Shown: piece after piece, positions 3,850 to 61,989 of the stretch
Numbering within the stretch: the first letter of the stretch is position 1
Layout of the letters: the number at the start of each line of letters is the position of its first letter
Virus record (IMG/VR): IMGVR_UViG_3300025708_000007
Span: 1-64,000 of that record
DNA: 64,000 bases
Strand: one strand, 5' to 3'
Origin: a virus
Lineage: Duplodnaviria; Caudoviricetes
Made by a program: the position numbers and the translations under genes
Notes under the pieces: model-generated
Seen by the model: the letters and a program-made list of their open reading frames with translations, nothing else
Told to the model about the DNA's origin: nothing
The model's database searches: none

Positions 3850-4688
3850 TAGTCAATTATTTTAAAACCTTCAACTTCAAGCGAATTTATCCCATCAACA
3901 AAACTTTGATATTGCCTGTCAATCGCCCAATCAGGTACATTTGACCTATCAACACCAGCTTCAATATCTTTTCTCACTCTTTGTTTTGCCACTTCCGGGT
4001 CAACACTAAATATTTTTGCAAATCCCTCAAATGGCTTATCTACATGAACTTTCATATAGTTCATAAGTCTTTTCCTATCTTCAGATTTTACATTTGTAGC
4101 ATCAAGAATTACGTTTTTACCGTTATTTAGTGCATCGGCAACTCTTTGAAATGCAAGTGCCCAAACTTGTCCATTTTTTGTTTGGTCAGAAATATTTCCG
4201 GTTAATTCCCTGCGAATATCGTCAGGAGATACAACAACAGTGTTGGCATCAGTATTTGCCTTAATCCACGTAGACTTACCACTACCAGAAATACCAACAG
4301 GGAGAAGTAATTTTGGTTTCCTTTCAATTTCAACTTCGCCTATTATTTCGTTTGGTGAATATTTATCTTCATATTTAATTCTCCAATTATATAATTTCTG
4401 AATGCCCCTACTATTAACCACACCGATTTTATCGTCAATGTTTATATTTTTCTTAATTATTTCTTTGGCACGCTCTAAAGTAAACTTCATAACGCTTGGG
4501 TCACTGTGTTTAACTCGATAATCACATGTTCCAAAACTGTCTTTCATTACTCCACTCAAAGAAGTAATGAAACATTTTCCACCGTGACCTATTCTAAAAA
4601 TTGCCCATGTGTTATCTTCAGGTGATTGGAATTCAGGATTAAGTTTTTCCATTACCTCAAAAAGTCGTTGTTTACTGTCTTTTTTCAT
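3849..4688 (-). CDS. P-loop kinase (AAA_33 / polynucleotide-kinase-like) with N-terminal RLFEVM leader
   Basis: GISGSGKST Walker A, VSPDDIRREL, VILDATN, RxxxR lid region. Confidence 0.8.
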   Translation of the reverse strand: MKKDSKQRLFEVMEKLNPEFQSPEDNTWAIFRIGHGGKCFITSLSGVMKDSFGTCDYRVKHSDPSVMKFTLERAKEIIKKNINIDDKIGVVNSRGIQKLYNWRIKYEDKYSPNEIIGEVEIERKPKLLLPVGISGSGKSTWIKANTDANTVVVSPDDIRRELTGNISDQTKNGQVWALAFQRVADALNNGKNVILDATNVKSEDRKRLMNYMKVHVDKPFEGFAKIFSVDPEVAKQRVRKDIEAGVDRSNVPDWAIDRQYQSFVDGINSLEVEGFKIID

Positions 4689-4689
4689 A

Positions 4690-5808
4690 TTAAATTGCTA
4701 TAATTGGGAACATTGGCGGTTGGTAGCCACGTTCTTTGTTAACGTTTTCAGCTATTTTAGCACGAATCTCTGTCATATTTTCCTGACTTAATTTTTCCAA
4801 CTGGTCAAGAATAATTTTTTCAGTATCTTCTTTTAATTTTGTTCCTTCTTCAAGCAAATGGCGATAATCCATTGTCAATTGCTTTTCAGTAACGCCAAGT
4901 TCACCACTGTAAAACCCTCTTATTCCACCAATAACAATTTTTACTTGCGCAATAAGAAGATTTCTTATTTGTTGTTGTGCAACATCATTCATTTTACCCC
5001 ATTCCAAAACCTTTGTTGGCGGGTCTGATGGTAATCTGACAACATCACTGTTTTCTTCCATACATTTATCTCTATCGTTAATGTTTGTGTCATAATACCA
5101 ATACCAAACTTTTCTACCAGCCATATGCTTACCCCATACACCTTGAATTTCATCACGTGAACCGGGTATTGGGTACAAATGTAATACTTTTTCTCCACTT
5201 GCCAAACCAGTAACACGATATGTTAATATTGATTGTAAAACTCTTTGCTTCATTCTTCTATCCTGTGCAGTTAAAAGAGTTGAAAATGTGGGTTGTACAT
5301 ACATTGCTGGACGACCAAGATATGACCAGCCAACCATGCCCGGACTCCAAGCATTTAATGCGAATGGGTCAACTAAGCCACCATCTATTTCTGGCGGTGT
5401 TTCCCACAAAACTTCATTAATTTCTCTACCAGCAGGTATAATATAATGCTGTGTATTTGCTTGTGTAACAATGAAATCACGCTTTAATTCCCAACCAGTT
5501 GCTGCAGGTGCGTTTGTTCCTAAACCAACTTGACGTGAATAAGCATATGTAAATGATTCCATATAATGATTTGATTTAGTTGTAAAAGCAGAAAGAAAAT
5601 CGCTGCTTTCTTTACTTAAACCTTCAAGTCCAATCCATTGCTGTTGTATCAGCCAATTATTCACAATTGATGAATAATCTTCTATAACCATTTCAAGGTA
5701 AGAATCCATCATTTCATCCTTAATTTCAAATGGTCTGAGTGGATATCCCAACGCATGTTTAACCTTGAGATACAGTTTATTTTTATCAACAGTAGTTATT
5801 AATGCCAT
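4690..5808 (-). CDS. putative neck protein (gp13-like)
   Basis: KVKHALGYPLRPFEI N-terminus reminiscent of gp13 (LGxP); upstream GTATTTAT motif; near head genes. Confidence 0.5.
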   Translation of the reverse strand: MALITTVDKNKLYLKVKHALGYPLRPFEIKDEMMDSYLEMVIEDYSSIVNNWLIQQQWIGLEGLSKESSDFLSAFTTKSNHYMESFTYAYSRQVGLGTNAPAATGWELKRDFIVTQANTQHYIIPAGREINEVLWETPPEIDGGLVDPFALNAWSPGMVGWSYLGRPAMYVQPTFSTLLTAQDRRMKQRVLQSILTYRVTGLASGEKVLHLYPIPGSRDEIQGVWGKHMAGRKVWYWYYDTNINDRDKCMEENSDVVRLPSDPPTKVLEWGKMNDVAQQQIRNLLIAQVKIVIGGIRGFYSGELGVTEKQLTMDYRHLLEEGTKLKEDTEKIILDQLEKLSQENMTEIRAKIAENVNKERGYQPPMFPIIAI

Positions 5809-24976: not shown

Positions 24977-25061
24977 ACGGCATTATACGATAAAGAATTA
25001 AATTTGTTACAAAAAAACCCGACTTTTTTTGAGTCGGGTTCTTATTTTCTTAAATATTTTT

Positions 25062-33783: not shown

Positions 33784-33796
33784 GTTCTTTGAAATT

Positions 33797-33953: not shown

Positions 33954-34123
33954 AAAATATCGATGATTTTATCTATATTTTCAAAATATCGATGAATTTA
34001 TCGATAAAATGAAAATATCGCTTAATTACACGATAATTGTATTTATCACGTAAACAAGTGATAAATAAGTTCTTTGAATTAATGAAAAAATGGGATTTGA
34101 AAAATTTTCAAGTATTTATTTAC

Positions 34124-34531
34124 ATGAAATATCCTAAGATAATAAAACGTTGTCCTATTTGTGATAAAGAATTTGAAACAAAATCGGGACACCCCAAAGA
34201 AAAAACAGTTTGTTCACATTCTTGTGCAAACACATATTTTCGGTCTGGAACTTCAAATCCTAATTACAAAAATGATGATGAATTAACTGGTGTTGCGAAA
34301 TACATTAGAATTTGTTTTCGATATCATCCTAAAAAATGCGTCTGCTGCAATGAAACAAATATTGTGGAAGTGCATCATTATGATAATAATAAAGAAAATA
34401 ATTCACCCGAAAACTTAATACCTTTATGTCCAACACATCATCAATATTGGCACAGTAGATTTAGACATTTGATTAAAACAAAGATTGATAAATATATTGT
34501 GGAATTTAAAAAAAATTTTATCGGGGTGTAG
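34124..34531 (+). CDS. HNH homing endonuclease
   Basis: CPIC, CSHSC, CVCC...EVHHYD...NLIPLCPTHH; track start 34037, ATG 34124 preferred. Confidence 0.8.
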   Translation: MKYPKIIKRCPICDKEFETKSGHPKEKTVCSHSCANTYFRSGTSNPNYKNDDELTGVAKYIRICFRYHPKKCVCCNETNIVEVHHYDNNKENNSPENLIPLCPTHHQYWHSRFRHLIKTKIDKYIVEFKKNFIGV

Positions 34532-35168: not shown

Positions 35169-35242
35169 TGACCCGTAGTGTAATTGGTTAACACGTCTCA
35201 CTTTGACTGAGAAGACTACAGGTTCGAGTCCTGTCGGGTCAA
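35169..35242 (+). tRNA. tRNA-Gln(TTG)
   Basis: TCTCA-CTTTGAC-TGAGA; T1:A72. Confidence 0.93.
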
Positions 35243-35712
35243 CTTTTTTTACGACAATGCGTTGGTAATGTTGCGTTACAGTTAGGACATAAAATTCTTA
35301 GATTTTCAATTCTATGGTCTGAATTATCACCATTAATATGGTCGAGAATTAAACTTATATGTTCACCGTTCCAATTTTCATTCTGACCACATTTTTCACA
35401 AATACGTTTTTTTAATCCTTCTTCATATAATCTATTCTTAATATTACCCAAATTTGTATAGGTTGAGCCAGACACTAAAATTTCGATTGTTGAAATTTTG
35501 CGAGAATTATTTAATTTGGTGTTTGTTCTCATATACCGTTCTACTTTTGATTCGAAATGTGAAATATCAATATCATATAATTTAATATATTTCTTTAGTG
35601 TAGGTCTCGAATTTCCTTTAATTCCCAATCCCAATTTTTGAAGTATTTCGGTATAATTTTTCGAGTTTTTTACAATAGGTTCAAAATTTTCTCGCAAATA
35701 TTTTGTTTTCAT
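35239..35712 (-). CDS. HNH homing endonuclease
   Basis: CEKC...LILDHINGDNSDHRIENLRILCPNC. Confidence 0.88.
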   Translation of the reverse strand: MKTKYLRENFEPIVKNSKNYTEILQKLGLGIKGNSRPTLKKYIKLYDIDISHFESKVERYMRTNTKLNNSRKISTIEILVSGSTYTNLGNIKNRLYEEGLKKRICEKCGQNENWNGEHISLILDHINGDNSDHRIENLRILCPNCNATLPTHCRKKS

Positions 35713-35777: not shown

Positions 35778-36179
35778 ATGAGTTACAATTTATTTCTTGA
35801 CGACTTCCGCATGCCAAAAGATGCTTTTGACTACATGCATTTACCAGTCTATATTCAAAAAGAATGGATTGTGGTTCGTAATTACCATGCATTTATTTCA
35901 TTAATTGAAGGAAAAGGAATTCCCGAAATTATATCTTTTGACCATGACCTTGCAGATGAACATTATGATTATCAGGAACATCTTGATGGTGATTATTATG
36001 ATATAATGACTGAAAAAACAGGATACCATTGCGCAAAATGGCTCATTGATTATTGTATTGATAACAATAAAGAACTTCCTGCAACGATTCTTATTCATTC
36101 GATGAATCCTGCTGGAAGTCTTAATATTAAATCTCTTTTCGATACCTATTATAAGTATCACGAAAAGGGTTTATTGTAA
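35778..36179 (+). CDS. cyclic-phosphate-processing receiver-like domain protein
   Basis: LFLDDFRMP, ISFDHDL, KTGYHCAKWL, IHSMNPAG pattern (family recalled, not searched). Confidence 0.65.
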   Translation: MSYNLFLDDFRMPKDAFDYMHLPVYIQKEWIVVRNYHAFISLIEGKGIPEIISFDHDLADEHYDYQEHLDGDYYDIMTEKTGYHCAKWLIDYCIDNNKELPATILIHSMNPAGSLNIKSLFDTYYKYHEKGLL

Positions 36180-39104: not shown

Positions 39105-39135
39105 TTTGTTTATTTTGAAACATTTTTTATCTTTG
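39105..39135 (+). promoter_or_regulatory. Bacteroidota sigma-A-type promoter of tRNA operon 2
   Basis: TTTG-N19-TATCTTTG. Confidence 0.8.
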
Positions 39136-39200
39136 TATCGTATAATTGCAAAACAAATAGTATTTAAATAAAAAGTATTAACAATTAAAATTCAAAACGA

Positions 39201-39296
39201 ATGAAAAGAATGCTCGACATATCAGTAATGGCAGTAGCCTTGAACGCAGTCCTATTATGGGATGCAGTAGAGGATGCGCTATGCAAAGTCGGGTAA
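39201..39296 (+). CDS. attenuator leader peptide 2 (Val/Ala/Leu/Asp/Glu/Trp)
   Basis: MKRMLDISVMAVALNAVLLWDAVEDALCKVG; upstream of Asp/Glu/Val/Leu/Ala/Trp tRNAs. Confidence 0.8.
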   Translation: MKRMLDISVMAVALNAVLLWDAVEDALCKVG

Positions 39297-39333
39297 TTTG
39301 TATTCATATACAACCTCCTTTCTAAATGAAAAG

Positions 39334-39365
39334 ACCCGACTTCCCTACAAGCCGGGTTTTTTTTT
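39334..39365 (+). terminator. attenuator terminator 2
   Basis: ACCCGACTT-CCCTAC-AAGCCGGGT+T run; 5' arm perfectly complementary to AAGTCGGGT (39286-39294). Confidence 0.85.
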
Positions 39366-39375
39366 GAAAGGAGAA

Positions 39376-39398: not shown

Positions 39399-39474
39399 GG
39401 TGCTGGGGTCTGCTTGGCGTGGACGCATGACTGTCACTCATGATATCAGGAGAGTTCGAATCTCTTCAGCACCG
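39399..39474 (+). tRNA. tRNA-Asp(GTC)
   Basis: CATGA-CTGTCAC-TCATG; G73. Confidence 0.9.
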
Positions 39475-39479
39475 CATAC

Positions 39480-39597
39480 GGTCTTATAAATAATTACCCT
39501 GAGTAAATCGGGTAGCCGATGTACACGGTTTGGAACGATTCGGAAAGCAAGCATGCATTGCTCGATGAGGGGGGGTTCGAATCCCTGTAAGACCGCA
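39480..39597 (+). ncRNA. tRNA-like RNA (acceptor + T-arm, non-tRNA interior)
   Basis: GGTCTTA/TAAGACC stem, GGGTTCGAATCCC, interior hairpins. Confidence 0.55.
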
Positions 39598-39602
39598 ATT
39601 TC

Positions 39603-39672
39603 GAGGTCGTAGTTTAATGGTTAGAATGCCACCCTGTCACGATGGAGAAGGGGTTCGAATCCCACGGCTTCG
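39603..39672 (+). tRNA. tRNA-Asp(GTC), degenerate
   Basis: loop CTGTCAC; short, imperfect T-stem. Confidence 0.6.
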
Positions 39673-39726
39673 GCAAATTTTACTGTTAAAGCAGTAAAAA
39701 GTGCCATATATGATACTAAAGATAGT

Positions 39727-39819
39727 GATGACCGATGTAAAAAACTGCACGAGAAACAGACACGAGTGGGTTAAGAGTTGTTTTAATACCCGCAACGGTT
39801 GCCAGTACCCAAGGTCATC
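39727..39819 (+). ncRNA. 93-nt structured element, copy 2
   Basis: GATGACC/GGTCATC terminal stem with two compensatory changes relative to copy 1. Confidence 0.7.
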
Positions 39820-39824
39820 CAGAT

Positions 39825-39898
39825 GCTGCGTTCGGCAAGATGGTTAAGCCGTAAGACCTTCAATCTTACATGCATGGGTTCGAGTCCCATACGCAGTA
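39825..39898 (+). tRNA. tRNA-Glu(TTC)
   Basis: TAAGA-CCTTCAA-TCTTA. Confidence 0.88.
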
Positions 39899-40013
39899 CA
39901 AGTGAAATCGAAATGTCGTAAGATAGTAGTAGTTAAGTCTACCGATTTTTGTGGTTTTGAGCACGAGACGCTCATGTAATAGGGCATACACTCCCTTTCC
40001 ACCACTTACTTAT

Positions 40014-40085
40014 GCTCGATTCTTCTAACGGTAAGGAAAACTGACTCTCAATCAGTTAATGGCAGTTCAATTCTGCCATCGAGTA
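40014..40085 (+). tRNA. tRNA-Glu(CTC)
   Basis: ACTGA-CTCTCAA-TCAGT. Confidence 0.85.
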
Positions 40086-40087
40086 CA

Positions 40088-40165
40088 ATTGGTCGGCTCG
40101 TCTAATTGGTTAGGACATCACCCTTTCACGGTGAAGATTTACGGGTTCGAGTCCCATACGCAATA
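40088..40165 (+). pseudogene. tRNA-Glu(TTC) with disrupted acceptor stem
   Basis: TCACC-CTTTCAC-GGTGA intact; acceptor strands pair poorly. Confidence 0.6.
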
Positions 40166-40262
40166 CAATGTTGAGGTGGTATTACACAGAGAAAAGAAAG
40201 TCTCTGCAGAGAACCTAAAAAATAATGGCTGCATGCGGGTGAAAATCCCGTCAACGTTAAAT

Positions 40263-40334
40263 GTCCGGTTCGTCTAACGGTTAGGACACCACCCTTTCAC
40301 GGTGAAAATACGAGTTCGATTCACGTACCGGATA
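40263..40334 (+). tRNA. tRNA-Glu(TTC)
   Basis: loop CTTTCAC; acceptor GTCCGGT/ACCGGAT. Confidence 0.88.
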
Positions 40335-40374
40335 CTATAAATCGGCACTAAATTCAATTTGCTGCCGAAAATTT

Positions 40375-40448
40375 GCTTCCTTAACTCAGTCCGGGAGAGT
40401 GTCTGTTTTACATACAGAAAGTCGCAGGTTCAAACCCTGCAGGAAGCA
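40375..40448 (+). tRNA. tRNA-Val(TAC)
   Basis: TCTGT-TTTACAT-ACAGA. Confidence 0.88.
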
Positions 40449-40641
40449 CAAAATGCCAAAGACTTGGGATAACATTCTCTTAAAGGGAAACCGGAGTAGT
40501 GATAGCTTAAACGAAGGGGTTTCATAGTCAATGGTAACAGCGAAAAGATAGCCACTCAGTAACTGTTGGGTGAGTAATGTAAGGGTTAAGCATGCCGGAG
40601 CGAAAGCCGGAAGATAAGGTTCGAATCCCCCACCCCAAAAT

Positions 40642-40719
40642 GCACTCTTAGCTCAGTTGGTTCAGAGCGTGTGCCTTACAAGCACAGGGTCGGGGGTTCG
40701 AATCCCTCAGAGTGCACCA
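40642..40719 (+). tRNA. tRNA-Val(TAC)
   Basis: TGTGC-CTTACAA-GCACA; encoded CCA. Confidence 0.95.
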
Positions 40720-40795
40720 AAATGAAAAATATGCTCAAAAACAAAAAAATATTATACTTTTGAGCATATGTTAGTATTTATTGTAAATTATTATC

Positions 40796-41293
40796 ATGGA
40801 AAGCTGTATTTTTTGTGGACATAGCAATATCGTTAGGGCAGGTAAAAATAAAAGGGGTAGTCAAAGATATATTTGCAGAAAATGTGGTAAATATTTTAAC
40901 GAAAATACTGACCCAAACATTGGAGTTATATTAAATGGTAAAAAATATTGTTCTAAGTGTAAAACATTTAAGTTAGTATCGGAATTTCAATCAACAAATG
41001 GTAGATTACGTTATTGTTGTAAAAAATGTGCATCAAAATCAAGTAAAGCAAGATTCAGAAATCATAATATAACTGAATTTGAATTCGTTAATTTAATCGA
41101 TAGTCAAAAAAATATGTGTCCAATATGTGGGGATAAATTTAAATCATATAAACATGCAATTATTGACCATAATCATAAAAATGGTAAAAATAGAGAATTA
41201 TTATGTTCTAAATGTAATACGTTGTTAGGTATGTGTAATGATAATATTGATATTCTCAATAGTGCAATCAATTATTTATTAAAACACAATTAA
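40796..41293 (+). CDS. endonuclease VII-like homing endonuclease with N-terminal zinc ribbons
   Basis: CPIC...IIDHNHKNGKNRELLCSKCNTLLG. Confidence 0.82.
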   Translation: MESCIFCGHSNIVRAGKNKRGSQRYICRKCGKYFNENTDPNIGVILNGKKYCSKCKTFKLVSEFQSTNGRLRYCCKKCASKSSKARFRNHNITEFEFVNLIDSQKNMCPICGDKFKSYKHAIIDHNHKNGKNRELLCSKCNTLLGMCNDNIDILNSAINYLLKHN

Positions 41294-41350
41294 TTTATCG
41301 GTATATTTGCCTATAAAGATATATTATCGGCTCTACAACCGATAAAATTT

Positions 41351-41433
41351 CCTCAAGTGTTGTAATTGGGTAGCCAAGCCAGACTAAGAATCTGGTGTCG
41401 AAAGATGTGTGGGTTCGAGTCCCACCTTGAGGA
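41351..41433 (+). tRNA. tRNA-Leu(AAG)
   Basis: CCAGA-CTAAGAA-TCTGG; long variable arm; A73. Confidence 0.88.
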
Positions 41434-41439
41434 CAAAAT

Positions 41440-41526
41440 GCGGATGTGATGGAATGGTAGACATGATACGCTTAGAACGTATTGCGAAGTAATAGTAGCG
41501 TGGGGGTTCGAGTCCCTTCATCCGTA
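41440..41526 (+). tRNA. tRNA-Leu(TAG)
   Basis: ATACG-CTTAGAA-CGTAT; long variable arm. Confidence 0.92.
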
Positions 41527-41532
41527 CTAAAT

Positions 41533-41607
41533 GCTGGTGTAGCCGAATGGTAAAGAGGCAACTGTTTTAGAAACAGAAATTTGTGGGTTCGACTCCCACC
41601 ACCAGTA
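41533..41607 (+). tRNA. tRNA-Leu(TAG), short variable loop
   Basis: CTGT-TTTAGAA-ACAG; A73. Confidence 0.78.
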
Positions 41608-41837
41608 CAAAGATGTTAATAAATAGAGTTGAGGGGCAGTAAGAGTGGTAATGAAAAGTCCTGAGAACCACCACCAGTTTGTTAACATTGAGAGAGGCGC
41701 ATGACAGATTCGAGCAGGGATGACTGCGTAGCCTGTACCAAGTGTTCTTAAAAGTGAAGGAGTAATACCTTCAGGCGCATTATTTCGAACTGCAAAGGGG
41801 TAATGGTCGAATTACTAATAAGGTACTACTCTCATTT

Positions 41838-41911
41838 GGGGTCGTAGCTCAATTGGCAAGAGCACCTGCCTTGCACGCAGGGGGTTGAGGGTTCGAGTCC
41901 CTTCGACTCCA
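41838..41911 (+). tRNA. tRNA-Ala(TGC)
   Basis: CCTGC-CTTGCAC-GCAGG; G3:U70. Confidence 0.95.
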
Positions 41912-41914
41912 CAA

Positions 41915-41994
41915 AATGAAATACAGAAAGTCTGGGTCAAACCCCAGAGAGACGTAAAATGTCGAGAAGTGTGACGGCACGTCTGTATTTCATT
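41915..41994 (+). ncRNA. candidate 80-nt four-way-junction RNA
   Basis: perfect 13-bp closing stem AATGAAATACAGA/TCTGTATTTCATT enclosing three hairpins. Confidence 0.55.
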
Positions 41995-41998
41995 CTTT

Positions 41999-42070
41999 GG
42001 GGCAGTAACTCAACGGCTGAGTGCTTGACTTGCAATCAAGTGTATGCGGGTTCGAATCCCGTCTGCTCCA
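41999..42070 (+). tRNA. tRNA-Ala(TGC)
   Basis: CTTGA-CTTGCAA-TCAAG; G3:U70. Confidence 0.92.
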
Positions 42071-42151
42071 CAAAATTGGTTGGAATTATTCCGTCAATTC
42101 TGTAATAAGAGCGTCAACAGCTACGGCATTAACTCTTTCCAATTTTAACAT

Positions 42152-42232
42152 GACCCCTTGAATTATGCAAAATAGGCACAGCAGACAGGCTTAAACCCTG
42201 ATTCTTTGTGGGTTCGAGTCCCACAGGGGTTA
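42152..42232 (+). tRNA. tRNA-Leu(TAA), atypical D region and short variable loop
   Basis: CAGG-CTTAAAC-CCTG; GACCCCT/AGGGGTT acceptor. Confidence 0.65.
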
Positions 42233-42241
42233 CAAATTTAC

Positions 42242-42315
42242 GGCACAGTAGTCCAACTGGCAGAGATACCCGCCTCAAAAGCGGTTCAGTGTGGGTTCGA
42301 ATCCCACCTGTGCTA
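42242..42315 (+). tRNA. tRNA-Leu(CAA), short variable loop
   Basis: loop CTCAAAA; 5-nt variable loop; A73. Confidence 0.82.
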
Positions 42316-42366
42316 CAAGCACGCACACAATGAATCGAAAATAAATTTTCGAAGTATTTATGATAT

Positions 42367-43035
42367 ATGATACCACTATATACACAAACGGAATTTGATT
42401 TAGCAAAAGATAATGATAAATTACCTTGTAAATGTGTTGAATGTGGTAAAATTTTTTATAAACTGAAAAGGGTGATAAAAAGAACATTCATTGGCTACGA
42501 TAGAAACATTGGTGATTATTGTTCAAGAAGATGTGCTCGATTATCAAAAAAATCGAGTGCAGATGTTGTTTGCAGTAATTGTGGAAAATCTTTCAATAAA
42601 GTAAAAAGTCAAATTAAAAGAAGCAAAAATCATTTTTGTTCTAAATCATGTTCTGCAATTTATAATAACGTCCATAAAAAACATGGAACACGAAAATCCA
42701 AACTTGAAAAATGGTTGGAATATAATCTCACCAAAATATACCCAGACTTAAATTTTCATTTTAATTGCAAAGACACCATTAATTCAGAACTTGATATTTA
42801 TATTCCATCATTAAAATTAGCTTTTGAATTAAATGGAATATACCATTACGAACCAATATATGGTGAGGATAAACTTCAACAAATTCAAAGCAATGATAAT
42901 CGTAAATTTCAAGCCTGTTTGGAAAAAGGTATCGAACTATGTATTATTGATACTTCACAACAAAAATATTTTAAAGAACAAACATCACAAAAATATTTAA
43001 AAATCGTACAAGAAATAATAAACACACATCGGTAG
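42367..43035 (+). CDS. zinc-finger + PD-(D/E)xK/Vsr-like putative homing endonuclease
   Basis: CVEC, CSRRC, CSNC, CSKSC; ELDIYIPSLKLAFELNG. Confidence 0.75.
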   Translation: MIPLYTQTEFDLAKDNDKLPCKCVECGKIFYKLKRVIKRTFIGYDRNIGDYCSRRCARLSKKSSADVVCSNCGKSFNKVKSQIKRSKNHFCSKSCSAIYNNVHKKHGTRKSKLEKWLEYNLTKIYPDLNFHFNCKDTINSELDIYIPSLKLAFELNGIYHYEPIYGEDKLQQIQSNDNRKFQACLEKGIELCIIDTSQQKYFKEQTSQKYLKIVQEIINTHR

Positions 43036-43097
43036 TTCAGTGGTAGAACGTTGGTCTCCAAAACCAAATGTCGGGTGTTCGAATCGCCCCCGGTGTG
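43026..43097 (+). tRNA. tRNA-Trp(CCA)
   Basis: TTGGT-CTCCAAA-ACCAA. Confidence 0.92.
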
Positions 43098-43103
43098 CTA
43101 AAT

Positions 43104-43178
43104 GTGTCTGTCGTCTAATGGCTAAGATATTGGCTTCCAAACCCAAGGATGAAGGTTCGAGTCCTTCCAGACATGCCA
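43104..43178 (+). tRNA. tRNA-Trp(CCA)
   Basis: loop TTCCAAA; encoded CCA. Confidence 0.85.
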
Positions 43179-43212
43179 AAACACGGAATAAAACCGTGCC
43201 AATTTTCGTAAT

Positions 43213-43335
43213 GAAACGGTGAAAAAATCGCAGGTGCGAGGCACAATCACCGTTGGAGTCCAAATCCGACACAGATACCACTGAGGGCAGAAGTGTACCC
43301 AAGAGCAATATCAGTTAGTGGTTCGTCACCGTTTC
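43213..43335 (+). ncRNA. candidate 123-nt structured RNA
   Basis: GAAACGGTGA/TCACCGTTTC 10-bp closing stem; internal ACCACTGA/TTAGTGGT stem. Confidence 0.45.
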
Positions 43336-43400
43336 AGAAAGTTTCAGTATTTTGTAACATTTTCAAATTTATTTCGTATAATCATTAAAAAGAAAGGAGC

Positions 43401-43624
43401 ATGCCTTCAAAATAACATTTAAATATCGCAAGACTTGGTGGTGGAGATTTGTACATTACAATTATTTTCACAAGCAATTGTTCAGAAAATATTATGTGCA
43501 AAGAAAAAGAGCACTTACCGAAAAGGAAATCAAGAAGTATAAACGATATCAGAAAATCGATGACTTGATAACTTTAAGAAAAGTAGATTGGTTGCGAGAA
43601 TTTATATGGCGATTAGAACCATAA
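43401..43624 (+). pseudogene. basic protein gene interrupted by a 1-nt frameshift
   Basis: ATG CCT TCA AAA TAA; one extra A in the run at 43409-43412 joins it to a ~70-codon start-less frame (…ITFKYRKTWWWRF…). Confidence 0.4.
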
Positions 43625-43653
43625 TTTTGTATTTATTGATAAAAGTGAAAATT

Positions 43654-44085
43654 ATGAAAAAAATATTGTTTCTTTTAACTCTGGTGATTATTGCAATGTT
43701 TTTGATGTCACAGACACAAACAACAAGGCAGAAAGAAGTTTATTATCAGGATAAATTTGCTGAAATCATCAAAGGCAGCACAAGCGTTACATTATGGGAT
43801 AAAACTGAAGTCGATATTCTTACCGACACATTTGCAATCGAAGTTGATTTTTCTGAGAAATGGGCAGAAAGCATAGGTCAGTCATTATATTATGCTGAAA
43901 TGACAAATCGTAAAGCAGGTGTTTTACTTGTTGTAAATAGTAATCTCGATGAAAGATTTATCAGAAGACTAATGACCGTTGCTATGAGAAAAGACATTAC
44001 TGTTTGGTTAATGGACTATACCACAGAAAAATGGTGCAAAGTTGATAGATTTGTTGAATATTCTTATTCATACGAATTTAAATAA
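43654..44085 (+). CDS. secreted/membrane-anchored protein with PD-(D/E)xK-like motif
   Basis: signal-like N-terminus; EVDILTDTFAIEVDFSEKWAESIGQSLYY. Confidence 0.6.
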   Translation: MKKILFLLTLVIIAMFLMSQTQTTRQKEVYYQDKFAEIIKGSTSVTLWDKTEVDILTDTFAIEVDFSEKWAESIGQSLYYAEMTNRKAGVLLVVNSNLDERFIRRLMTVAMRKDITVWLMDYTTEKWCKVDRFVEYSYSYEFK

Positions 44086-44126
44086 CACTTGTTTGTTTCA
44101 GAAAAAAGAATTAAATTTGTCACCCT

Positions 44127-44861
44127 ATGTATATCATTGCAAAGAAAAAGGACTATTATGATGGCGTTGCTGGAAGTACTGGCATTGACAAAACCATTGT
44201 TTATGACCGTCAAATAGTTGAACTTGAAAGGGACGAAATACCCACTGAGTTCAGGAAAAGGGGTTATTATACTAAAGAAAACAACCCATTATATCTTTTA
44301 AGCAATGCCAGCATAAAAAAAGAATATCAGGAAACATATCCAAAAGGTGCATATTTCATTATTGGATTTTGTGGTAAACTTTATCTGGGGTGGAAATTCT
44401 ATAGTTTCAAAAAGAATTGTGAGTATAATGATTATGAAAACATTAATACTTTAATAACATACGATTTGGACTATATTAAAGAAATCCTTGAAGAAAAAAC
44501 TTGGTATGGTGTCACTGCTGACCAAATCGAAAGTGTATTAAATTTTAATGCAACGGATTGGTTCAGAAAATTTAATGCTCCTTGTTTTGTTTACGATTAT
44601 GATTATGGCAGAACACACCTTGATGAAAAATATTGGAGAAGTGATAATGTTTCAAAATTTATAATCAATCCTCTTTTAAAAGACTACGAATTTTATAAAG
44701 TATTTGATTCATTTCAAGCATTTCAGGAAGTTTCGATGTTCATAGGCGGTGTACTTGGCAAGGAAGAAAAAGATATTGTAGAAGTTGCGGATAAATATAA
44801 AATTGCGCAACATGGTTTTGATAAATGGAGTTTCAGAAAAATGCCAAAAAATGAAAAATAG
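44127..44861 (+). CDS. conserved phage hypothetical protein
   Basis: KKDYYD N-terminus and KIAQHGFDKWSFRK C-terminus. Confidence 0.75.
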   Translation: MYIIAKKKDYYDGVAGSTGIDKTIVYDRQIVELERDEIPTEFRKRGYYTKENNPLYLLSNASIKKEYQETYPKGAYFIIGFCGKLYLGWKFYSFKKNCEYNDYENINTLITYDLDYIKEILEEKTWYGVTADQIESVLNFNATDWFRKFNAPCFVYDYDYGRTHLDEKYWRSDNVSKFIINPLLKDYEFYKVFDSFQAFQEVSMFIGGVLGKEEKDIVEVADKYKIAQHGFDKWSFRKMPKNEK

Positions 44862-45051
44862 TGTTACGGATGAAAATGATAATCCAATTGGATTGATGGA
44901 ACAAATAAGAAAGCAATCTGAAGAGAACAAAAAAATTGAAATTAATCTCGAAGAAAAATTAAGTGAGCCTTGGAAAAAACCCAATATTGACACAATATAT
45001 GGTGGAATTGAATTTATTGAAAAATTTAATGAAGAGTTAAATGAAACATAA
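44851..45051 (+). CDS. hypothetical protein
   Basis: 66-aa ORF overlapping the upstream stop. Confidence 0.55.
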   Translation: MKNSVTDENDNPIGLMEQIRKQSEENKKIEINLEEKLSEPWKKPNIDTIYGGIEFIEKFNEELNET

Positions 45052-45121
45052 TTGAAGACTTTATTCATGAAGTCAGATACAGTATTTCTTTAATGGATGG
45101 TACGCATCCTTGACGTTCTTT

Positions 45122-45494
45122 GGGGCAGTTTGGTTTTGACAGCATGCTTGAATGGTATGTAAGCAAGTCGTAGTTTGAGCAACACTACGTAAAAACAGGT
45201 TCAAAACAATAAATGCAGAGGATATAATGTCCATTCCTACTTCTCTAACGAGAGGTCGCTTATTTGTAGAGAGTGCTGAACTCGCAATGGTAGCGTAAGG
45301 AAGCAGCAAACGCAGCAAAAACCTTCCAAATAAACCCATCTCGATGGAACTTGTTATTTTAACAGAGAGATAAGGAAGTAAAATAAAACAGTGGATAAAA
45401 AATAAATGTTTTGCTGATTTAGAAAAATCAGATAAACTTGTAGAAAACGTATTGGGCACATGACTGCACACGGGTTCGAATCCCGTCTGCTCCA
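45122..45494 (+). ncRNA. ssrA: tmRNA
   Basis: 5' GGGGCAGTTTGGTTTTGACAGC, 3' GGGTTCGAATCCCGTCTGCTCCA, G3:U70; resume GCA at 45215 after ATAAAT; tag AEDIMSIPTSLTRGRLFVESAELAMVA* to 45298. Confidence 0.92.
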
Positions 45495-45519
45495 CTAAAA
45501 CATTTAAAACATTGAAATT

Positions 45520-45957
45520 ATGAGTGACCATAGTAAACAAATAGAATTACTGGAAAAACTTCTCAATTCTGAGGAAGGTAAAGCCTCTATGAAAAAATTT
45601 TTCAACGATTTGGCAGATAAGAAAAAAATTGCTGAAGGTCGTTATAGGAAATTTGAAAAATGGCTTGAAACTCACGATTTAGATGAAATAATGCAACGTC
45701 TTGAAAAAGAACATTGTGTTGAATGGCGTAATAAGTGTTATAATAATGGTTATGAACCATATCCAAATAACAAACTTGCTTTTTTAATTGATTATGTCGT
45801 TCATAATTATTATTCAATTAGCGTACCGCAAATTGAAAGCGAACATTTCGCAAATCAATCTTGGTTTTTCAAAGGATACTATATTAATATGACTTGGGGT
45901 CAGGGAGTGTTCACGCAAATATTTGACAGCAAATTCAATCAAATTATTGCGCTATGA
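45520..45957 (+). CDS. hypothetical protein
   Basis: 145-aa ORF. Confidence 0.72.
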   Translation: MSDHSKQIELLEKLLNSEEGKASMKKFFNDLADKKKIAEGRYRKFEKWLETHDLDEIMQRLEKEHCVEWRNKCYNNGYEPYPNNKLAFLIDYVVHNYYSISVPQIESEHFANQSWFFKGYYINMTWGQGVFTQIFDSKFNQIIAL

Positions 45958-46268
45958 AAATATATCACAACAAATTGGTGAGAGATAAAATACTGAAGAC
46001 ACTAAAAAAATCTGGTGTTGGTCATAAATATCATATTGCAAAAGACGATACTGAATTTCTTGAAAAACTTAATGAAAAACTTCGGGAAGAAATACAAGAA
46101 TTTAATGAAAAACCAAGCATTGAGGAATTTGCGGATATACTACAAGTACTTGAAACCATTGCAAGATTTCATAGTTTTGATTTGAATGAAATTAAAGAAG
46201 CAAAAGCCAATAAATTCTATAATAAAGGTGGCTTTAATAATAGAATTGTTTTGGAAGAAACGAATTAA
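45954..46268 (+). CDS. MazG-like nucleoside triphosphate pyrophosphohydrolase
   Basis: HNKLVRDKI, LREEIQEF, SIEEFADILQVL (EExxE...EExxD). Confidence 0.78.
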   Translation: MKIYHNKLVRDKILKTLKKSGVGHKYHIAKDDTEFLEKLNEKLREEIQEFNEKPSIEEFADILQVLETIARFHSFDLNEIKEAKANKFYNKGGFNNRIVLEETN

Positions 46269-46295
46269 CTGAAACTTTTTGCGGTAAAAATAAAC

Positions 46296-46385
46296 GGGGG
46301 TGTGATGAAATTGGTAGCACATACGGGACTTAAAATCCCGTGGGCAGTAATGCCCGTGTCGGTTCGAGTCCGACCACCCCTACCA
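46296..46385 (+). tRNA. tRNA-Leu(TAA)
   Basis: CGGGA-CTTAAAA-TCCCG; long variable arm; encoded CCA. Confidence 0.95.
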
Positions 46386-46497
46386 AAACATTTGGTAGCA
46401 TTGCTACAAATAAACAAAGGCGGGTGTGGTGTCCCAACATCGGCAATTTAGATGCAATTGTCGGTAGCATGAGTTCGAGTCTCACCACCAAATGTTT
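46386..46497 (+). ncRNA. tRNA-like RNA with T-arm and long hairpin
   Basis: AAACATTTGGT/ACCAAATGTTT stem, GAGTTCGAGTCTC T-arm, 10-bp hairpin with 7-nt loop. Confidence 0.5.
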
Positions 46498-46512
46498 TTA
46501 AATTAAAATGAT

Positions 46513-46695
46513 ATGTTGTCATACGGAAAAAATAAGAAAATGCGTGAAAACTATCCTGACAATCATCCCAAGAAAGGATATGTAAACTGGTGGGAAGTTG
46601 AACTTGGAGATATTGATAAAGGTCGTGAACGTCAAGAAGCAAAACGTAACATAAAAAAAGAATTAAATGATGAAACTATTGGCAGGAATGATTGA
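46513..46695 (+). CDS. hypothetical protein
   Basis: 60-aa basic ORF. Confidence 0.55.
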   Translation: MLSYGKNKKMRENYPDNHPKKGYVNWWEVELGDIDKGRERQEAKRNIKKELNDETIGRND

Positions 46696-46781
46696 AATGT
46701 TCAGAATGTTGTTTATTAACAGTTATGATGACCCATACACTGAATACCTTTCGGAACAACCGGGTATTTATGTTCACATAA

Positions 46782-47078
46782 GTGATGTTTATGATAATGT
46801 TTAGAGAAATGCGTAAAGAAGTTAAGTTTTTATCAAAAGAAATTAAATTTGCAATTCGTAAAGAAATTCGCAAAGAATGCCGTCAGGAAGCAATACGAAT
46901 ACTTGAACTTGCAGAGGAAAAAGACCGTGAGGATTTTCTTAAATATCATAAAGAAGACCAAGGAAACATTTGCTGTATGGTGTTGGATTTTGCAAAGAAA
47001 AAATTAGTTGAAAAGGGTGTTATGGAACAAAAACCAAACGATTGTTTTGAAGACCCGACAATACATTTGGAAAAATGA
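46782..47078 (+). CDS. hypothetical protein
   Basis: 98-aa ORF. Confidence 0.55.
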   Translation: MMFMIMFREMRKEVKFLSKEIKFAIRKEIRKECRQEAIRILELAEEKDREDFLKYHKEDQGNICCMVLDFAKKKLVEKGVMEQKPNDCFEDPTIHLEK

Positions 47079-47196
47079 AAATCAAAAAGAATTTCAATCC
47101 CAATGATTGTGGTTGTGGTAAATCTTTAAAAACTAAGGATTCTCGAAGAAAAAATACCACACCAAAACGAATAATAAAGAAAAAAAGTAACCTCAA

Positions 47197-47742
47197 GTGA
47201 TGGATAATAAATCATATTCATATTTGTTGGGGCAGTATTTAGGTGACGGCTGTGTTTCTGAAACAAAAAGAACGTATAGATTACGTATTTTTAATGACGT
47301 TAAATATAATCATTTAAATGACTATATATTTCAAACAATACAAAAAATATTTCCAAACAATAAGGTGAATACATGTTTTTATCAAAATCATGTTATTACT
47401 TATGTTTATTCAAATGAAATTCCCAAATTATTTCCACAACACAATCTGGGATTAAAAAAAAATAGAAAAATTCAATTATATGACTGGCAAATAAAAATAT
47501 TGGACTATAAATATTTATTTGCAGGATTGTTGCATTCAGATGGTTGTATTTATTTTGACAGAGGATATAAAATGTGTGTATTTACTAACACTTCATTAGA
47601 CATATTGGACATTTTTAAAGATTGTTGCGATAAATTAAATATTGAATACACCATCAATAAAAATAGGATACAAATAAGAAAAAGAAAATCTAATGATTGG
47701 ATTGAAGAAAATGTTGGTGATAAAAATATAATTAAAATATAA
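47197..47742 (+). CDS. LAGLIDADG-family homing endonuclease
   Basis: two motifs YLLGQYLGDGC and LFAGLLHSDGC. Confidence 0.85.
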   Translation: MMDNKSYSYLLGQYLGDGCVSETKRTYRLRIFNDVKYNHLNDYIFQTIQKIFPNNKVNTCFYQNHVITYVYSNEIPKLFPQHNLGLKKNRKIQLYDWQIKILDYKYLFAGLLHSDGCIYFDRGYKMCVFTNTSLDILDIFKDCCDKLNIEYTINKNRIQIRKRKSNDWIEENVGDKNIIKI

Positions 47743-47743
47743 T

Positions 47744-47817
47744 GCCCAGATGACGGAATTGGCATACGTATTAGATTCAAAACCTAAGTTTTGTGGGTTC
47801 GACTCCCACTCTGGGCA
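47744..47817 (+). tRNA. tRNA-Leu(CAA), short variable loop
   Basis: loop TTCAAAA; 5-nt variable loop; A73. Confidence 0.8.
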
Positions 47818-47837
47818 CTAAAAAAAATGTATTGGTT

Positions 47838-48341
47838 ATGGCAAAAATACTCAAAGTTCCAATGAAAGGACAATGGTATGATTTTGATTGCGGTGTTGCT
47901 ATAACATATTCAATATTAAGATATCTCAAAATAAAGGTTAGTTATGAAGATGTTTTAAAAACATCAAAAGTGTGCCCGGTAAATGGCATAAAGCCAAACA
48001 AGCTTATCAATTTGTTTAAAAAATTTGGATTGAATGCTGTTTGCGAAAACGATAAAAACATTAGATTCTTAATCAAACAAATAAATGCCAATAATCCAGT
48101 AATTGTATTAATTCAATGTAGAAAAGAATATAAAAAGTCTTGGGCGAGTACGTGGGCACACGGACACTACGTTGTGGTAATTGGTTACGATAAAAACAGA
48201 GTATTTATATTTGACCCGTCAATGGGTGGTAGCATAAAAACATTTACACATAAACAATTTTATGGTCGTTGGCATGATTATTCAAAAAATAATACTTATA
48301 TTCGAACCGTAATTTATATTGATGATGAAAATGAGAAATGA
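47838..48341 (+). CDS. C39-like cysteine peptidase
   Basis: QWYDFDCGVA (Q...C), HGHYVVVIGYD, FDPSMG. Confidence 0.8.
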   Translation: MAKILKVPMKGQWYDFDCGVAITYSILRYLKIKVSYEDVLKTSKVCPVNGIKPNKLINLFKKFGLNAVCENDKNIRFLIKQINANNPVIVLIQCRKEYKKSWASTWAHGHYVVVIGYDKNRVFIFDPSMGGSIKTFTHKQFYGRWHDYSKNNTYIRTVIYIDDENEK

Positions 48342-48376
48342 AAGGGCATCAGTCTTTTAAGTTAATTACTTAAAAG

Positions 48377-48700
48377 ATGAAAGCAAAAAAAATCTCAGAC
48401 GAAACCACTAATCGTGGTGAATTCAATCGTGCATACAAGTTTTATCTTGAGCACAGTGGCAAAATTAGCTGTAGTTATTGTCGTTACAATCGTGGCGAAA
48501 ATTCAAATCAAAAATGGTATGGTGGTTATCTTTATGATGACATGGAAATTTGTCGTGGTAAAAGAAAGGGAACAAATACCAGATTTCCAAACTGGAAACT
48601 TGTTTCAAAAAATAAAAAACAGTGGATGGAAAAGCCAATCAAAATGAAAAAAAGATATTTTGGTGGGTATACCAGAATTTATATCGACATTGTTTGGTAA
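48377..48700 (+). CDS. hypothetical basic protein
   Basis: CSYCRYNRGEN and NWKLVSKNKKQW motifs. Confidence 0.7.
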   Translation: MKAKKISDETTNRGEFNRAYKFYLEHSGKISCSYCRYNRGENSNQKWYGGYLYDDMEICRGKRKGTNTRFPNWKLVSKNKKQWMEKPIKMKKRYFGGYTRIYIDIVW

Positions 48701-48712
48701 TGTCGATTATTT

Positions 48713-48785
48713 GGCGGGATAGCTCAGTTGGTAGAGCGATGGAGTCATAACCCATAGGTCGTGAGTTCGAATCTCACTCCCGCTA
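48713..48785 (+). tRNA. tRNA-Met(CAT) (elongator; Ile2 not excluded)
   Basis: GGCGGGA acceptor; loop GTCATAA. Confidence 0.88.
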
Positions 48786-48789
48786 CAAA

Positions 48790-48818
48790 TAAAAAAACCC
48801 ATCGAATTCGATGGGTTT
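48790..48818. terminator. terminator ending tRNA operon 2 / convergent genes
   Basis: AAACCCATCGAATTCGATGGGTTT palindrome. Confidence 0.75.
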
Positions 48819-61359: not shown

Positions 61360-61953
61360 ATGAAAACAAAAGATAGTGTAATTAAACTAAGACTTTCTGG
61401 AAAAAGTTATGGCGAAATAAGTAAAATGCTGAACATTTCTAAACCCACAGTATCCTACCATTGTATAAATGCCGGATTGAATGAACCAATTGATGGTCGT
61501 AAAATATTGAATGAGGCTGAGAAAATTGAACTTAATGAATATTATAAATCACATACTATTTTCGAAACAGCAGAAAAATTTAAGATATCAAGAACAACTG
61601 TTCTTGCAAACACTGAAAATAAGAGACTGGTATTGTGTGAAATTGAAAAAAGAAAAAGAAATTATGAAAAGGTAAAAAATAGGCGACAACGGCTTAAAGA
61701 GATGGGTGTTGAATATTTAGGTGGAAAATGTATGAAATGTGGGTATGATAAATGTATTGCTGCGTTAGAATTTCACCATAGAAACCCAGAAGAAAAAGAA
61801 TTTGGAATATCACGTTATCAAAATTTGAGTTGGTCAAGAATTATTGTTGAATTAGATAAATGTGATTTACTGTGTTCTAATTGTCATAAAGAATTACATT
61901 ATGAGGAACATTGGGATGTATCACCTCTGCCTGATAAGCAGTCGAAAGTGTAG
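61360..61953 (+). CDS. HTH + HNH homing endonuclease
   Basis: CMKCGYDKCIAALEFHHRNP...KCDLLCSNCHKELH. Confidence 0.88.
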   Translation: MKTKDSVIKLRLSGKSYGEISKMLNISKPTVSYHCINAGLNEPIDGRKILNEAEKIELNEYYKSHTIFETAEKFKISRTTVLANTENKRLVLCEIEKRKRNYEKVKNRRQRLKEMGVEYLGGKCMKCGYDKCIAALEFHHRNPEEKEFGISRYQNLSWSRIIVELDKCDLLCSNCHKELHYEEHWDVSPLPDKQSKV

Positions 61954-61989
61954 TTTGGTTGCACGTGGGTTCAAATCCCACCTTCCCAA
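61912..61989 (+). tRNA. tRNA-Ile(GAT)-like, D-arm missing
   Basis: CTGC-CTGATAA-GCAG; GTGGG-TTCAAAT-CCCAC; only 6-8 nt between acceptor and anticodon stem. Confidence 0.5.

Follow-up and report, generated by a model that had tools for sequence, protein, structure and literature searches.

The stretch of DNA analyzed here (the window) is the first 64 kb of one 90,967-bp contig, IMGVR_UViG_3300025708_000007 (the 91-kb contig when taken whole), from an uncultured large phage of Bacteroidota. It carries four blocks of transfer RNA (tRNA) genes, and we describe the element ahead of the second block (attenuator 2), in which a short leader open reading frame (ORF) is followed by an intrinsic terminator. 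We estimate a probability of roughly 0.78 that this element is a leader-peptide attenuator, combined with a boxA of the ribosomal RNA (rRNA) type, that gates the second tRNA array of the phage. To judge from the sequence, the phage probably makes these tRNAs when ribosomes read the leader codons slowly. A ribosome-mediated attenuator at this place had been proposed in an earlier reading of the window (the original prediction), and the proposal is supported by the anatomy of the region, by three sister elements in the same window, and by 22 homologous leaders with conserved frame and composition and with covarying helices.

Anatomy of attenuator 2

The window is AT-rich (G+C content, 33%) and contains 42 tRNA-type genes (i.e., 41 tRNAs and one transfer-messenger RNA, tmRNA) as called by ARAGORN, all of them on the plus strand; the fourth block runs past the window to 70.5 kb on the contig. 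The attenuator site is bounded by a 307-codon ORF upstream (ending at 39060) and by the first tRNA-Asp downstream (39399). The leader ORF, with a start codon and an in-frame stop, sits between a promoter and the tRNA array (Table 1). The ORF, the antiterminator, the terminator, and the tRNAs are all present where the original prediction had placed them, and its account of the helices is exact: the antiterminator (region 2) overlaps the stop codon and forms nine perfect base pairs with the terminator 5' arm (region 3), whereas the terminator stem itself contains one mismatch. The region from 39190 to 39370 has a folding z score of -3.4.

TABLE 1 Features of attenuator 2, its tRNA array, and the sister attenuators
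Feature	Positions	Strand	Remarks
Promoter, Bacteroidota type	39105-39135	+	Pattern match; TTTG at 39105-39108, 19 nt, TATCTTTG at 39128-39135
Leader ORF	39201-39296	+	ATG at 39201, TAA at 39294-39296; 31 codons; peptide MKRMLDISVMAVALNAVLLWDAVEDALCKVG
Region 1, TGCTCGAC	39211-39218	+	Codons Leu5-Asp6; pairs with region 2 in minimum-free-energy folds
Region 2 (antiterminator), AAGTCGGGT	39286-39294	+	Last T is the first base of the TAA stop
Spacer hairpin, TTGTAT/ATACAA	39298-39313	+	Between stop and terminator; in all window folds
Outer-helix 5' strand, ACCTCCTTTCT	39313-39323	+	Same 11 nt as the 3' end of Bacteroidales 16S rRNA
Region 3 (terminator 5' arm), ACCCGACTT	39334-39342	+	Perfect 9-pair complement of AAGTCGGGT
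Region 4 (terminator 3' arm), AAGCCGGGT	39349-39357	+	One A·C mismatch with the 5' arm (39339/39352)
Intrinsic terminator with T-run	39334-39365	+	Arms 39334-39342/39349-39357, T's to 39365; covariation
Outer-helix 3' strand, GAAAGGAG	39366-39373	+	Forms only in read-through transcripts
boxA-like element, GTTCTTTGACATGCTGGAA	39376-39394	+	Exact 19-mer of the Bacteroidales 16S-23S spacer
Array 2	39399-48786	+	18 tRNAs, 1 tmRNA, about 10 plus-strand ORFs; ARAGORN, Rfam, domain searches
Weak promoter-like site	40755		Ahead of an endonuclease VII gene
Weak promoter-like site	41302		49 nt ahead of a Leu tRNA
Weak promoter-like site	44112		Ahead of an ORF
tmRNA	45122-45495	+	Tag peptide ends ...AELAMVA; inside block 2
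tRNA with CAT anticodon	48713-48786	+	Last tRNA of the array
Two-way terminator hairpin	48795-48818	both	Closes the plus-strand unit; minus-strand genes beyond
Homing-endonuclease-type ORFs among tRNAs	40796-41293, 42367-43035, 47197-47742, 34037-34531, 35239-35712 (minus strand)		Endo VII with zinc ribbon, HNH, LAGLIDADG
Attenuator 1			Gln/Pro/His leader; Pro/His/Gln tRNAs
Attenuator 3			Tyr/Lys leader; Tyr/Lys tRNAs
Attenuator 4			Thr/Ser/Arg/Gly/Phe/Cys/Asn/Ile leader; same-family tRNAs

Each leader matches the amino acids of its own array

The array encodes tRNAs for Asp (two), Glu (three), Val (two), Leu (six), Ala (two), and Trp (two), together with one tRNA that has a CAT anticodon. Residues of the corresponding set (Asp, Glu, Val, Leu, Ala, Trp, and Met) account for 22 of the 30 leader residues after the start, while the background is 0.36 (binomial P = 4e-5). 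Among the 520 small ORFs of the 91-kb contig (leader included), the purest 12-residue window is that of the leader (12/12), and no other ORF equals it.

The other three tRNA blocks are laid out in the same way, and a matching leader precedes each of them. The true assignment of leaders to blocks is the best of the 24 permutations, and the four leader sets cover the 20 amino acids without overlap. Homologs of attenuators 1 and 3 are also carried by relatives of the phage. By the same sequence logic, the three sister attenuators would act likewise for the remaining 13 amino acids.

Conservation of the leader among uncultured phages

Relatives were retrieved from IMG/VR, from many samples, by using the upstream protein and the boxA 19-mer as probes. 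The boxA probe yielded 77 IMG/VR stretches, about 25 of which have a leader of the attenuator-2 type. A first filter, which demanded a stop codon adjoining region 2, gave 22 distinct homologous leaders (the family below), and a looser one gave 25 relatives (a few incomplete or near-duplicate) with the stop 0 to 24 nt after region 2. The contigs with such a leader measure up to 364 kb, and a probe-matched contig of 675 kb is without one. The attenuator-2 family is thus widespread in large uncultured phages.

The ATG and the reading frame are kept in all 22 relatives (27 to 31 codons), whose stop is TAA in 21 cases, TGA in one, and TAG in none. TAG is also never the stop of a leader in the window, where all four end with TAA. 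An amber-suppressor tRNA (anticodon CTA) lies outside the window at about 73.3 kb on the contig (73291-73366). In the core of the family leaders, 409 of 450 residues (91%) are cognate to the array (D, E, V, L, A, W, or M), while the cognate share is 5% at codons 2 and 3 and 42% in the last six codons. The last six codons would not be usable for sensing, because a ribosome stalled there would already cover region 2. Across the 22 relatives, the order of the residues drifts in the middle of the leader and the composition does not. In the codons that flank an invariant Trp codon, position 1 is almost invariably G and position 2 is the most variable, and Asp, Glu, Val, and Ala are swapped freely. 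Gly, whose tRNAs are in block 4, is absent from all 248 GNN codons of the family leaders, compared with 19% of the residues encoded by GNN in the phage ORFs. This pattern is unlike that of an ordinary protein or a purely structural RNA; selection for any amino acid of the leader's own block would produce it.

The array is conserved as well, with the order Asp, Glu, Val, Leu, Ala, (Leu), Trp, followed by Leu(TAA), Leu(CAA), and the CAT tRNA. In relative L018, no Val tRNA is found in 3 kb of array sequence, and the only Val codons of the leader are the structural GTC of the antiterminator.

Alternative helices and their covariation

The antiterminator (2:3) and the terminator (3:4) both covary in the family: 91% and 92% of their alignment cells are paired, four and five pairs show changes on both sides, and in neither case did any of 500 shuffles reach the observed covariation. 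In L057, for example, regions 2, 3, and 4 have changed jointly (GTCGAGA, TCTCGAC, and GTCGAGA). GTC GGG is fixed as the final codon pair of the leader, since the antiterminator is made from it. RNA structure probably accounts for part of the codon choice in the leader. In the window, the duplex energies are -13.7 kcal/mol for 2:3, -9.7 kcal/mol for 1:2, and about -8.3 to -8.6 kcal/mol for 3:4. The comparison of free energies suggested with the original prediction therefore puts the antiterminator ahead in the window (-13.7 kcal/mol, versus -8.6 kcal/mol for the terminator) and gives no rule for the family, since the terminator is often the stronger helix in the relatives. A spacer hairpin of other sequence (GTAATA..TATTAC type) was seen by eye at the same place in relatives.

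The conserved alternative helices might also belong to an RNA switch that works without translation, operated by a phage or host RNA-binding protein or by uncharged tRNA as in a T-box, with the ORF being incidental; a conserved 16S-like segment, CTCCTTTC, between the stop and the terminator would suit such a switch. The start, frame, and stop of the ORF are nevertheless kept through at least four length classes in the family, each a multiple of three, and its three codon positions vary in a manner consistent with selection on the amino-acid family. In addition, an Rfam search of positions 33000 to 64000 returned only tRNAs and the tmRNA at the gathering score, and no family, T-box included, at the attenuators. 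We regard a translation-free switch as very improbable.

Proposed mechanism

From this anatomy, we infer the following mechanism. Host RNA polymerase would start at the TTTG/TAnnTTTG promoter and transcribe the 31-codon leader. If the leader is not translated, region 1 would pair with region 2, the terminator would form, and transcription would stop. If translation is fast, the ribosome at the TAA would cover region 2, and the terminator would again form. If charged tRNAs are scarce, slow decoding of the presumed sensing codons 4 to 24 (Met, Leu, Asp, Val, Ala, Trp, and Glu) would leave region 2 free to pair with the terminator 5' arm, so that the polymerase reads through. The outcome would be decided by a race between the translation time of codons 4 to 24 and the time taken by the polymerase to cover the 69 nt that separate the stop from the end of the T-run. 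A polymerase that has read through would then transcribe a hairpin-plus-boxA module apparently copied from the host rRNA operon, which on sequence grounds probably makes it resistant to termination across a mostly untranslated array. The predicted result is negative feedback on the supply of the same tRNA families that the leader senses.

Folds were also computed with ribosome footprints. Without a ribosome, the 1:2 helix and the terminator form; with a ribosome at the stop, region 2 is masked and the terminator forms; and a footprint that covers region 1 or lies at Glu24 gives the antiterminator. The state with the ribosome at the stop also bears on an arrest of the TnaC type, in which a small molecule would be sensed through the nascent peptide, halting the ribosome at the stop codon. 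TnaC has W12, D16, and a stop at codon 25, and the leaders resemble it in a Trp and acidic residues about 11 codons before the stop, the W and an E-D pair being nearly invariant at a fixed distance from it. However, a ribosome stalled there would promote termination by hiding the antiterminator, the reverse of the TnaC logic; the two Trp tRNAs of the array explain the Trp codon; and the other three leaders are without such a motif. This explanation is the least probable of those that we considered.

Codon-level matching and observations against the attenuator

The original prediction also held that leader and array match codon by codon, and in the window this is true for Leu, Glu, Trp, and Met. 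The Leu codons CTC (39213), TTG (39240), CTA (39252 and 39279), and TTA (39255) have counterparts in the anticodons AAG, CAA (two genes), TAG (two genes), and TAA, respectively, the reading of CTC by AAG being conditional on the modification of A34. GAG (39270) finds Glu(CTC), which accompanies two Glu(TTC) genes; the one TGG (39258) finds the two Trp(CCA) tRNAs; and the internal ATG codons at 39210 and 39228 find the CAT tRNA, though its Met and Ile2 identities are indistinguishable. The match breaks down for GTC and GCC, and it could not be demonstrated for the family as a whole.

These two codons are among several observations that weigh against the attenuator. In the window, GTC (twice, once as the structural GTC of the antiterminator) and GCC have no strict-wobble tRNA in the array, and the same is true of these frequent leader codons in most arrays of the family: GTC represents 24 of the 69 Val codons in the family leaders, yet Val(GAC) occurs in only 2 of 11 arrays. 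Under strict wobble, the array tRNAs serve only 19 of the 30 leader codons. CTT is absent from the 139 Leu codons of the family leaders, while it makes up 26% of genomic Leu codons and Leu(AAG) or Leu(GAG) tRNAs are common; the codons that the leaders prefer (i.e., CTA, GTC, GCC, and GAG) are rare in the phage. The leader-to-array codon score is 0.634 with the own array and 0.618 with the arrays of other phages; this difference (permutation P = 0.012) was not counted as support for codon-anticodon covariation, since truncation of arrays at the ends of loci and the relatedness of the phages confound it. On the basis of the weak strict-wobble fit, the codon use of the family, and this unconvincing comparison, we conclude that the leader matches its array at the level of the amino acid (tRNA family) and not of the codon. 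The replacement of Leu(AAG) by Leu(GAG) in relatives is consistent with a slot that reads CTY.

A noncognate ATA (Ile) is conserved at leader position 7. The CAT tRNA would explain this codon if it were tRNA-Ile2; this assignment was not adopted, since the gene is indistinguishable from tRNA-Met (it has no initiator features) and Ile(TAT) is already present in array 4. Furthermore, L021 and L038 have no tRNA genes for Glu, Val, Ala, and Leu(TAG), yet their leader keeps those codons. Their array reads Asp, three ORFs, Trp, tmRNA, Leu, Leu, and Met; in L038 (the same phage as L002 and L021), three ORFs at 3453 to 5309 replace the Glu, Val, Leu, and Ala tRNAs, and the tRNA-Asp is called by ARAGORN and falls short of E = 0.1 with the Rfam tRNA model.

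The Val, Ala, and Glu codons retained in L021 and L038 and the weak codon-level matching would be expected of a translation-coupled attenuator that senses the general state of translation (ribosome availability, global starvation, or a postinfection timer), with the amino-acid match being a by-product of history; a race between ribosome and polymerase would likewise integrate the whole ORF. Such a general sensor would not need four leaders whose division of the 20 amino acids coincides exactly with that of the four arrays, nor would it account for the exclusion of Gly from 248 GNN codons or for a composition that is kept while the order drifts. We consider it unlikely.

Small membrane peptides also look rich in Val, Ala, and Leu, which raises the question of whether the ORF encodes a functional small hydrophobic peptide. 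The hairpin would then be a leaky, ordinary terminator, and the tRNAs would be transcribed by read-through or from unrecognized promoters. The composition, the conserved ends (MKNLLDIL ... LLW ... VG), and the weak terminator of the window agree with this explanation. It is contradicted by the acidic residues scattered in the hydrophobic stretch and the unconserved residue order, by the last codons (GTC GGG), which form an antiterminator that covaries with the terminator arm, by the three unrelated leaders of the window that match their own arrays, and by the lack of room for a promoter ahead of the first tRNA, as the terminator ends only 33 nt before it and no promoter motif is present there. 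A peptide function for the ORF is, in our assessment, quite improbable.

The remaining difficulties for a leader-peptide attenuator are structural. The 1:2 helix is paired in 98% of cells in the family with one-sided changes only; it contains no double compensation, and 431 of 500 shuffles reached the observed covariation. With a footprint in mid-ORF (Leu18 to Trp20), the thermodynamic optimum is still the 1:2 helix plus the terminator, so sensing at those codons needs a steric or kinetic argument, and the race model is favored for this reason; a 1:2 helix closed around a mid-ORF ribosome is probably disallowed sterically. The terminator of the window is weak (-8.3 kcal/mol), and basal read-through may therefore be high. 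Insertions of 30 to 40 nt between the terminator and the boxA occur in L008, L031, and L057. By eye, the one in L031 (7800-7850; TTGTAACA ... TCTTTG) is similar to the leader promoter in its downstream half, and it may be a second promoter that bypasses the attenuator. Finally, a relaxed scan of the array found three weak intergenic TAnnTTTG sites (Table 1).

Extent of the regulated unit

From these weak sites, to judge by their sequence, distal genes of the array could be started independently of the attenuator. No plus-strand hairpin with a T-run was found between 39365 and 48797, and a scan for the full promoter motif (TTTG-N17-21-TAnnTTTG) found none inside the array. The terminator that the original prediction had noted after the last tRNA, at 48790, corresponds to the two-way hairpin of Table 1. 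Its further suggestion, a single transcript from 39.2 to 48.8 kb, is favored by the lack of an internal terminator or full promoter and by the boxA, and it is weakened by the three promoter-like sites; one 9.6-kb transcript is plausible on the sequence. The first seven tRNAs are the most securely under the control of the attenuator, and the boxA makes it plausible that control extends over all 9.4 kb.

The genes downstream are tRNAs, a tmRNA, and homing endonucleases, and not enzymes that make or charge the sensed amino acids. The ORFs of the block are mainly homing endonucleases (Endo VII, HNH, and LAGLIDADG), with one C39-like peptidase. The tmRNA is also found in block 2 of the relative L038 (6903-7267). 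Its location inside block 2 places a ribosome-rescue RNA behind an attenuator that is predicted to open on ribosome stalling. The first tRNA-Asp (39399-39475) has a low Rfam score (40.8 bits). Weak or partial Rfam tRNA matches that ARAGORN did not call lie at 40100 to 40157 and 61912 to 61989 and may be tRNA remnants.

Promoter, rRNA-like module, and likely host

The pattern TTTG-N17-21-TAnnTTTG has 14 matches in the window, compared with 5.6 expected, and it precedes all four leaders and tRNA blocks on the plus strand. A weight matrix built from 21 homologous leader promoters matches only 39128 and 60570 on the 91-kb contig; this matrix is overspecific, as it misses attenuators 1 and 3, and so cannot exclude internal promoters.

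The segment ACCTCCTTTCT has a single match in the window. The 16S 3' end of Odoribacter (L150, 4320-4339) is ACACCTCCTTTCT, the anti-Shine-Dalgarno tail. Downstream, GAAAGGAG pairs with CCTCCTTTC (39314-39322) and forms an outer helix around the terminator. As this helix cannot be aligned by column, it was tested by the pairing energy of own and foreign strands: the mean is -10.2 kcal/mol with the own partner and -7.4 kcal/mol with the partners of other phages (permutation P < 2e-4). Most of the 22 relatives retain the 16S-like motif CTCCTTTC, also when the outer-helix partner uses bases upstream of it instead, and pairing alone does not therefore explain its conservation. The motif would be single-stranded in terminated leader RNAs. 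Two candidate partners of CTCCTTTC, a conserved GAGGA in the leader and the 5' untranslated region, were dropped because the pairings are short and unconserved.

The boxA-like element GTTCTTTGACATGCTGGAA is a candidate loading site, presumably, for NusB/S10. The exact 19-mer occurs in more than 120 bacterial genome contigs, nearly all of Bacteroidota. For 78 of 117 instances, the 5' end of 23S follows 29 to 157 nt downstream; the 16S-23S spacers of Odoribacter and Butyricimonas carry the 19-mer roughly 100 nt ahead of 23S. A hairpin precedes the boxA here as it does in the rRNA spacers of Bacteroidales. The 19-mer has a UCUUU core in common with the boxA consensus of Escherichia coli (UGCUCUUUAACA) and Bacillus subtilis (AUGAUCUUUGAAA) (PMC13753749). 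From the promoter type and the boxA identity, we predict that the host belongs to Bacteroidota and, more narrowly, probably to Bacteroidales.

Within the window, boxA-like sequences of the form GTTCTTTGA(C/A)AT occur at 33784, 34069, 39376, and 61012 (i.e., after the attenuator 1 terminator and within blocks 1 and 4, besides the element described above). Attenuator 4 has a boxA variant, GTTCTTTACAT, at about 60853, and attenuator 3, whose block is short (450 nt), has no boxA-like element. Two of the 120 boxA-bearing loci from bacterial genomes (L086 and L188) contain a leader of the attenuator-2 type; L086, a 5.9-kb contig binned as Anaerolinea, is probably a misbinned phage fragment.

Relation to known systems

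Leader-peptide attenuation is the textbook device by which bacteria couple amino-acid synthesis to tRNA charging. In enterobacteria, trpL and hisL are the paradigm for a single amino acid, and the leaders of ilvGMEDA (Ile/Leu/Val) and thrL (Thr/Ile) are multivalent. Attenuator 2 shares with these systems a short translated ORF rich in the sensed codons and the exclusive pairings 1:2, 2:3 (antiterminator), and 3:4 (terminator with a U-run). In both, a ribosome at the stop occludes region 2 and an untranslated leader is predicted to terminate; as in trpL, about 70 nt separate the stop from the point where the T-run ends. No similarity to the amino-acid operon attenuators was found by sequence or in Rfam. 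In contrast to them, attenuator 2 is viral, its targets are tRNA and tmRNA genes instead of biosynthetic enzymes, such that the feedback would act on the decoding molecules themselves, one leader would sense seven amino-acid families, and a boxA follows the terminator.

The pheM leader of E. coli pheST also controls a component of translation that serves the sensed codons, although its target is a synthetase for one amino acid, whereas the product here is tRNAs. T-box riboswitches likewise exert tRNA-dependent control of read-through at a terminator/antiterminator, but they sense by direct binding of uncharged tRNA, independently of translation, and their targets are synthetase and amino-acid genes. 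The predicted boxA has the same placement at the head of a long untranslated operon as the antitermination sites of rRNA operons (boxB-like hairpin plus boxA, NusB/S10) and lambda nut, except that it lies behind a regulated terminator in a phage tRNA operon.

A full-text literature search found leader-peptide attenuation described for amino-acid operons, synthetases, resistance genes, and Mg2+ transport, and found no description of it for tRNA genes; the sole mention of a "tRNA operon" concerned supercoiling (PMC3082878). The class of mechanism is known; the target and the logic are new. A textbook device apparently controls the tRNA genes themselves, in a virus, as a direct feedback loop on decoding capacity. 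If this is true, it would explain how the timing of tRNA synthesis is set in large phages that encode dozens of tRNAs, would add a mode of tRNA-gene regulation for which we found no published description, and would provide, for use in Bacteroidota, a ready-made sensor of decoding speed that is specific for amino acids. The element is suited to simple reporters, with the four sister elements as built-in specificity controls.

More speculatively, and with a lower likelihood than the attenuator itself, the four attenuators could form a tRNA-depletion alarm, in which only the matching array is turned on when a tRNA family is cut or lost, for instance through anticodon-nuclease defenses or phage-induced decay of host RNA. 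In such an alarm, array 2 would mimic the host rRNA operon through the 16S 3'-tail sequence, the hairpin, and the spacer boxA, and the mimic would recruit the host machinery for rRNA antitermination (and perhaps processing) to a 9-kb tRNA/tmRNA operon. The tmRNA, which rescues stalled ribosomes, would itself be induced by stalling. We consider this extension doubtful.

Other features of the phage and its relatives

A search of INPHARED with blastn gave no match for the leader-region DNA among deposited phage genomes, and tblastn with the upstream 307-aa protein matched only a short domain in actinophages, which is of no use for placing the phage. The ORF at 35778 to 36176, directly after the Pro/His/Gln block and a candidate for a role in RNA repair, matches PF20274, the cyclic-phosphate-processing receiver domain (E = 9e-22). 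A hairpin at 25016 to 25040 (AACCCGACT ... AGTCGGGTT), among minus-strand genes, has the same arms as the terminators of the attenuators. Other phages (L006, L014, and similar ones) have a single mixed leader ahead of their tRNAs, with its own antiterminator and terminator; one such leader starts with MQTQMNHIIENCF... and another with MRTTMVHISSFKQQ..., and in L014 a promoter follows the terminator of the mixed leader.

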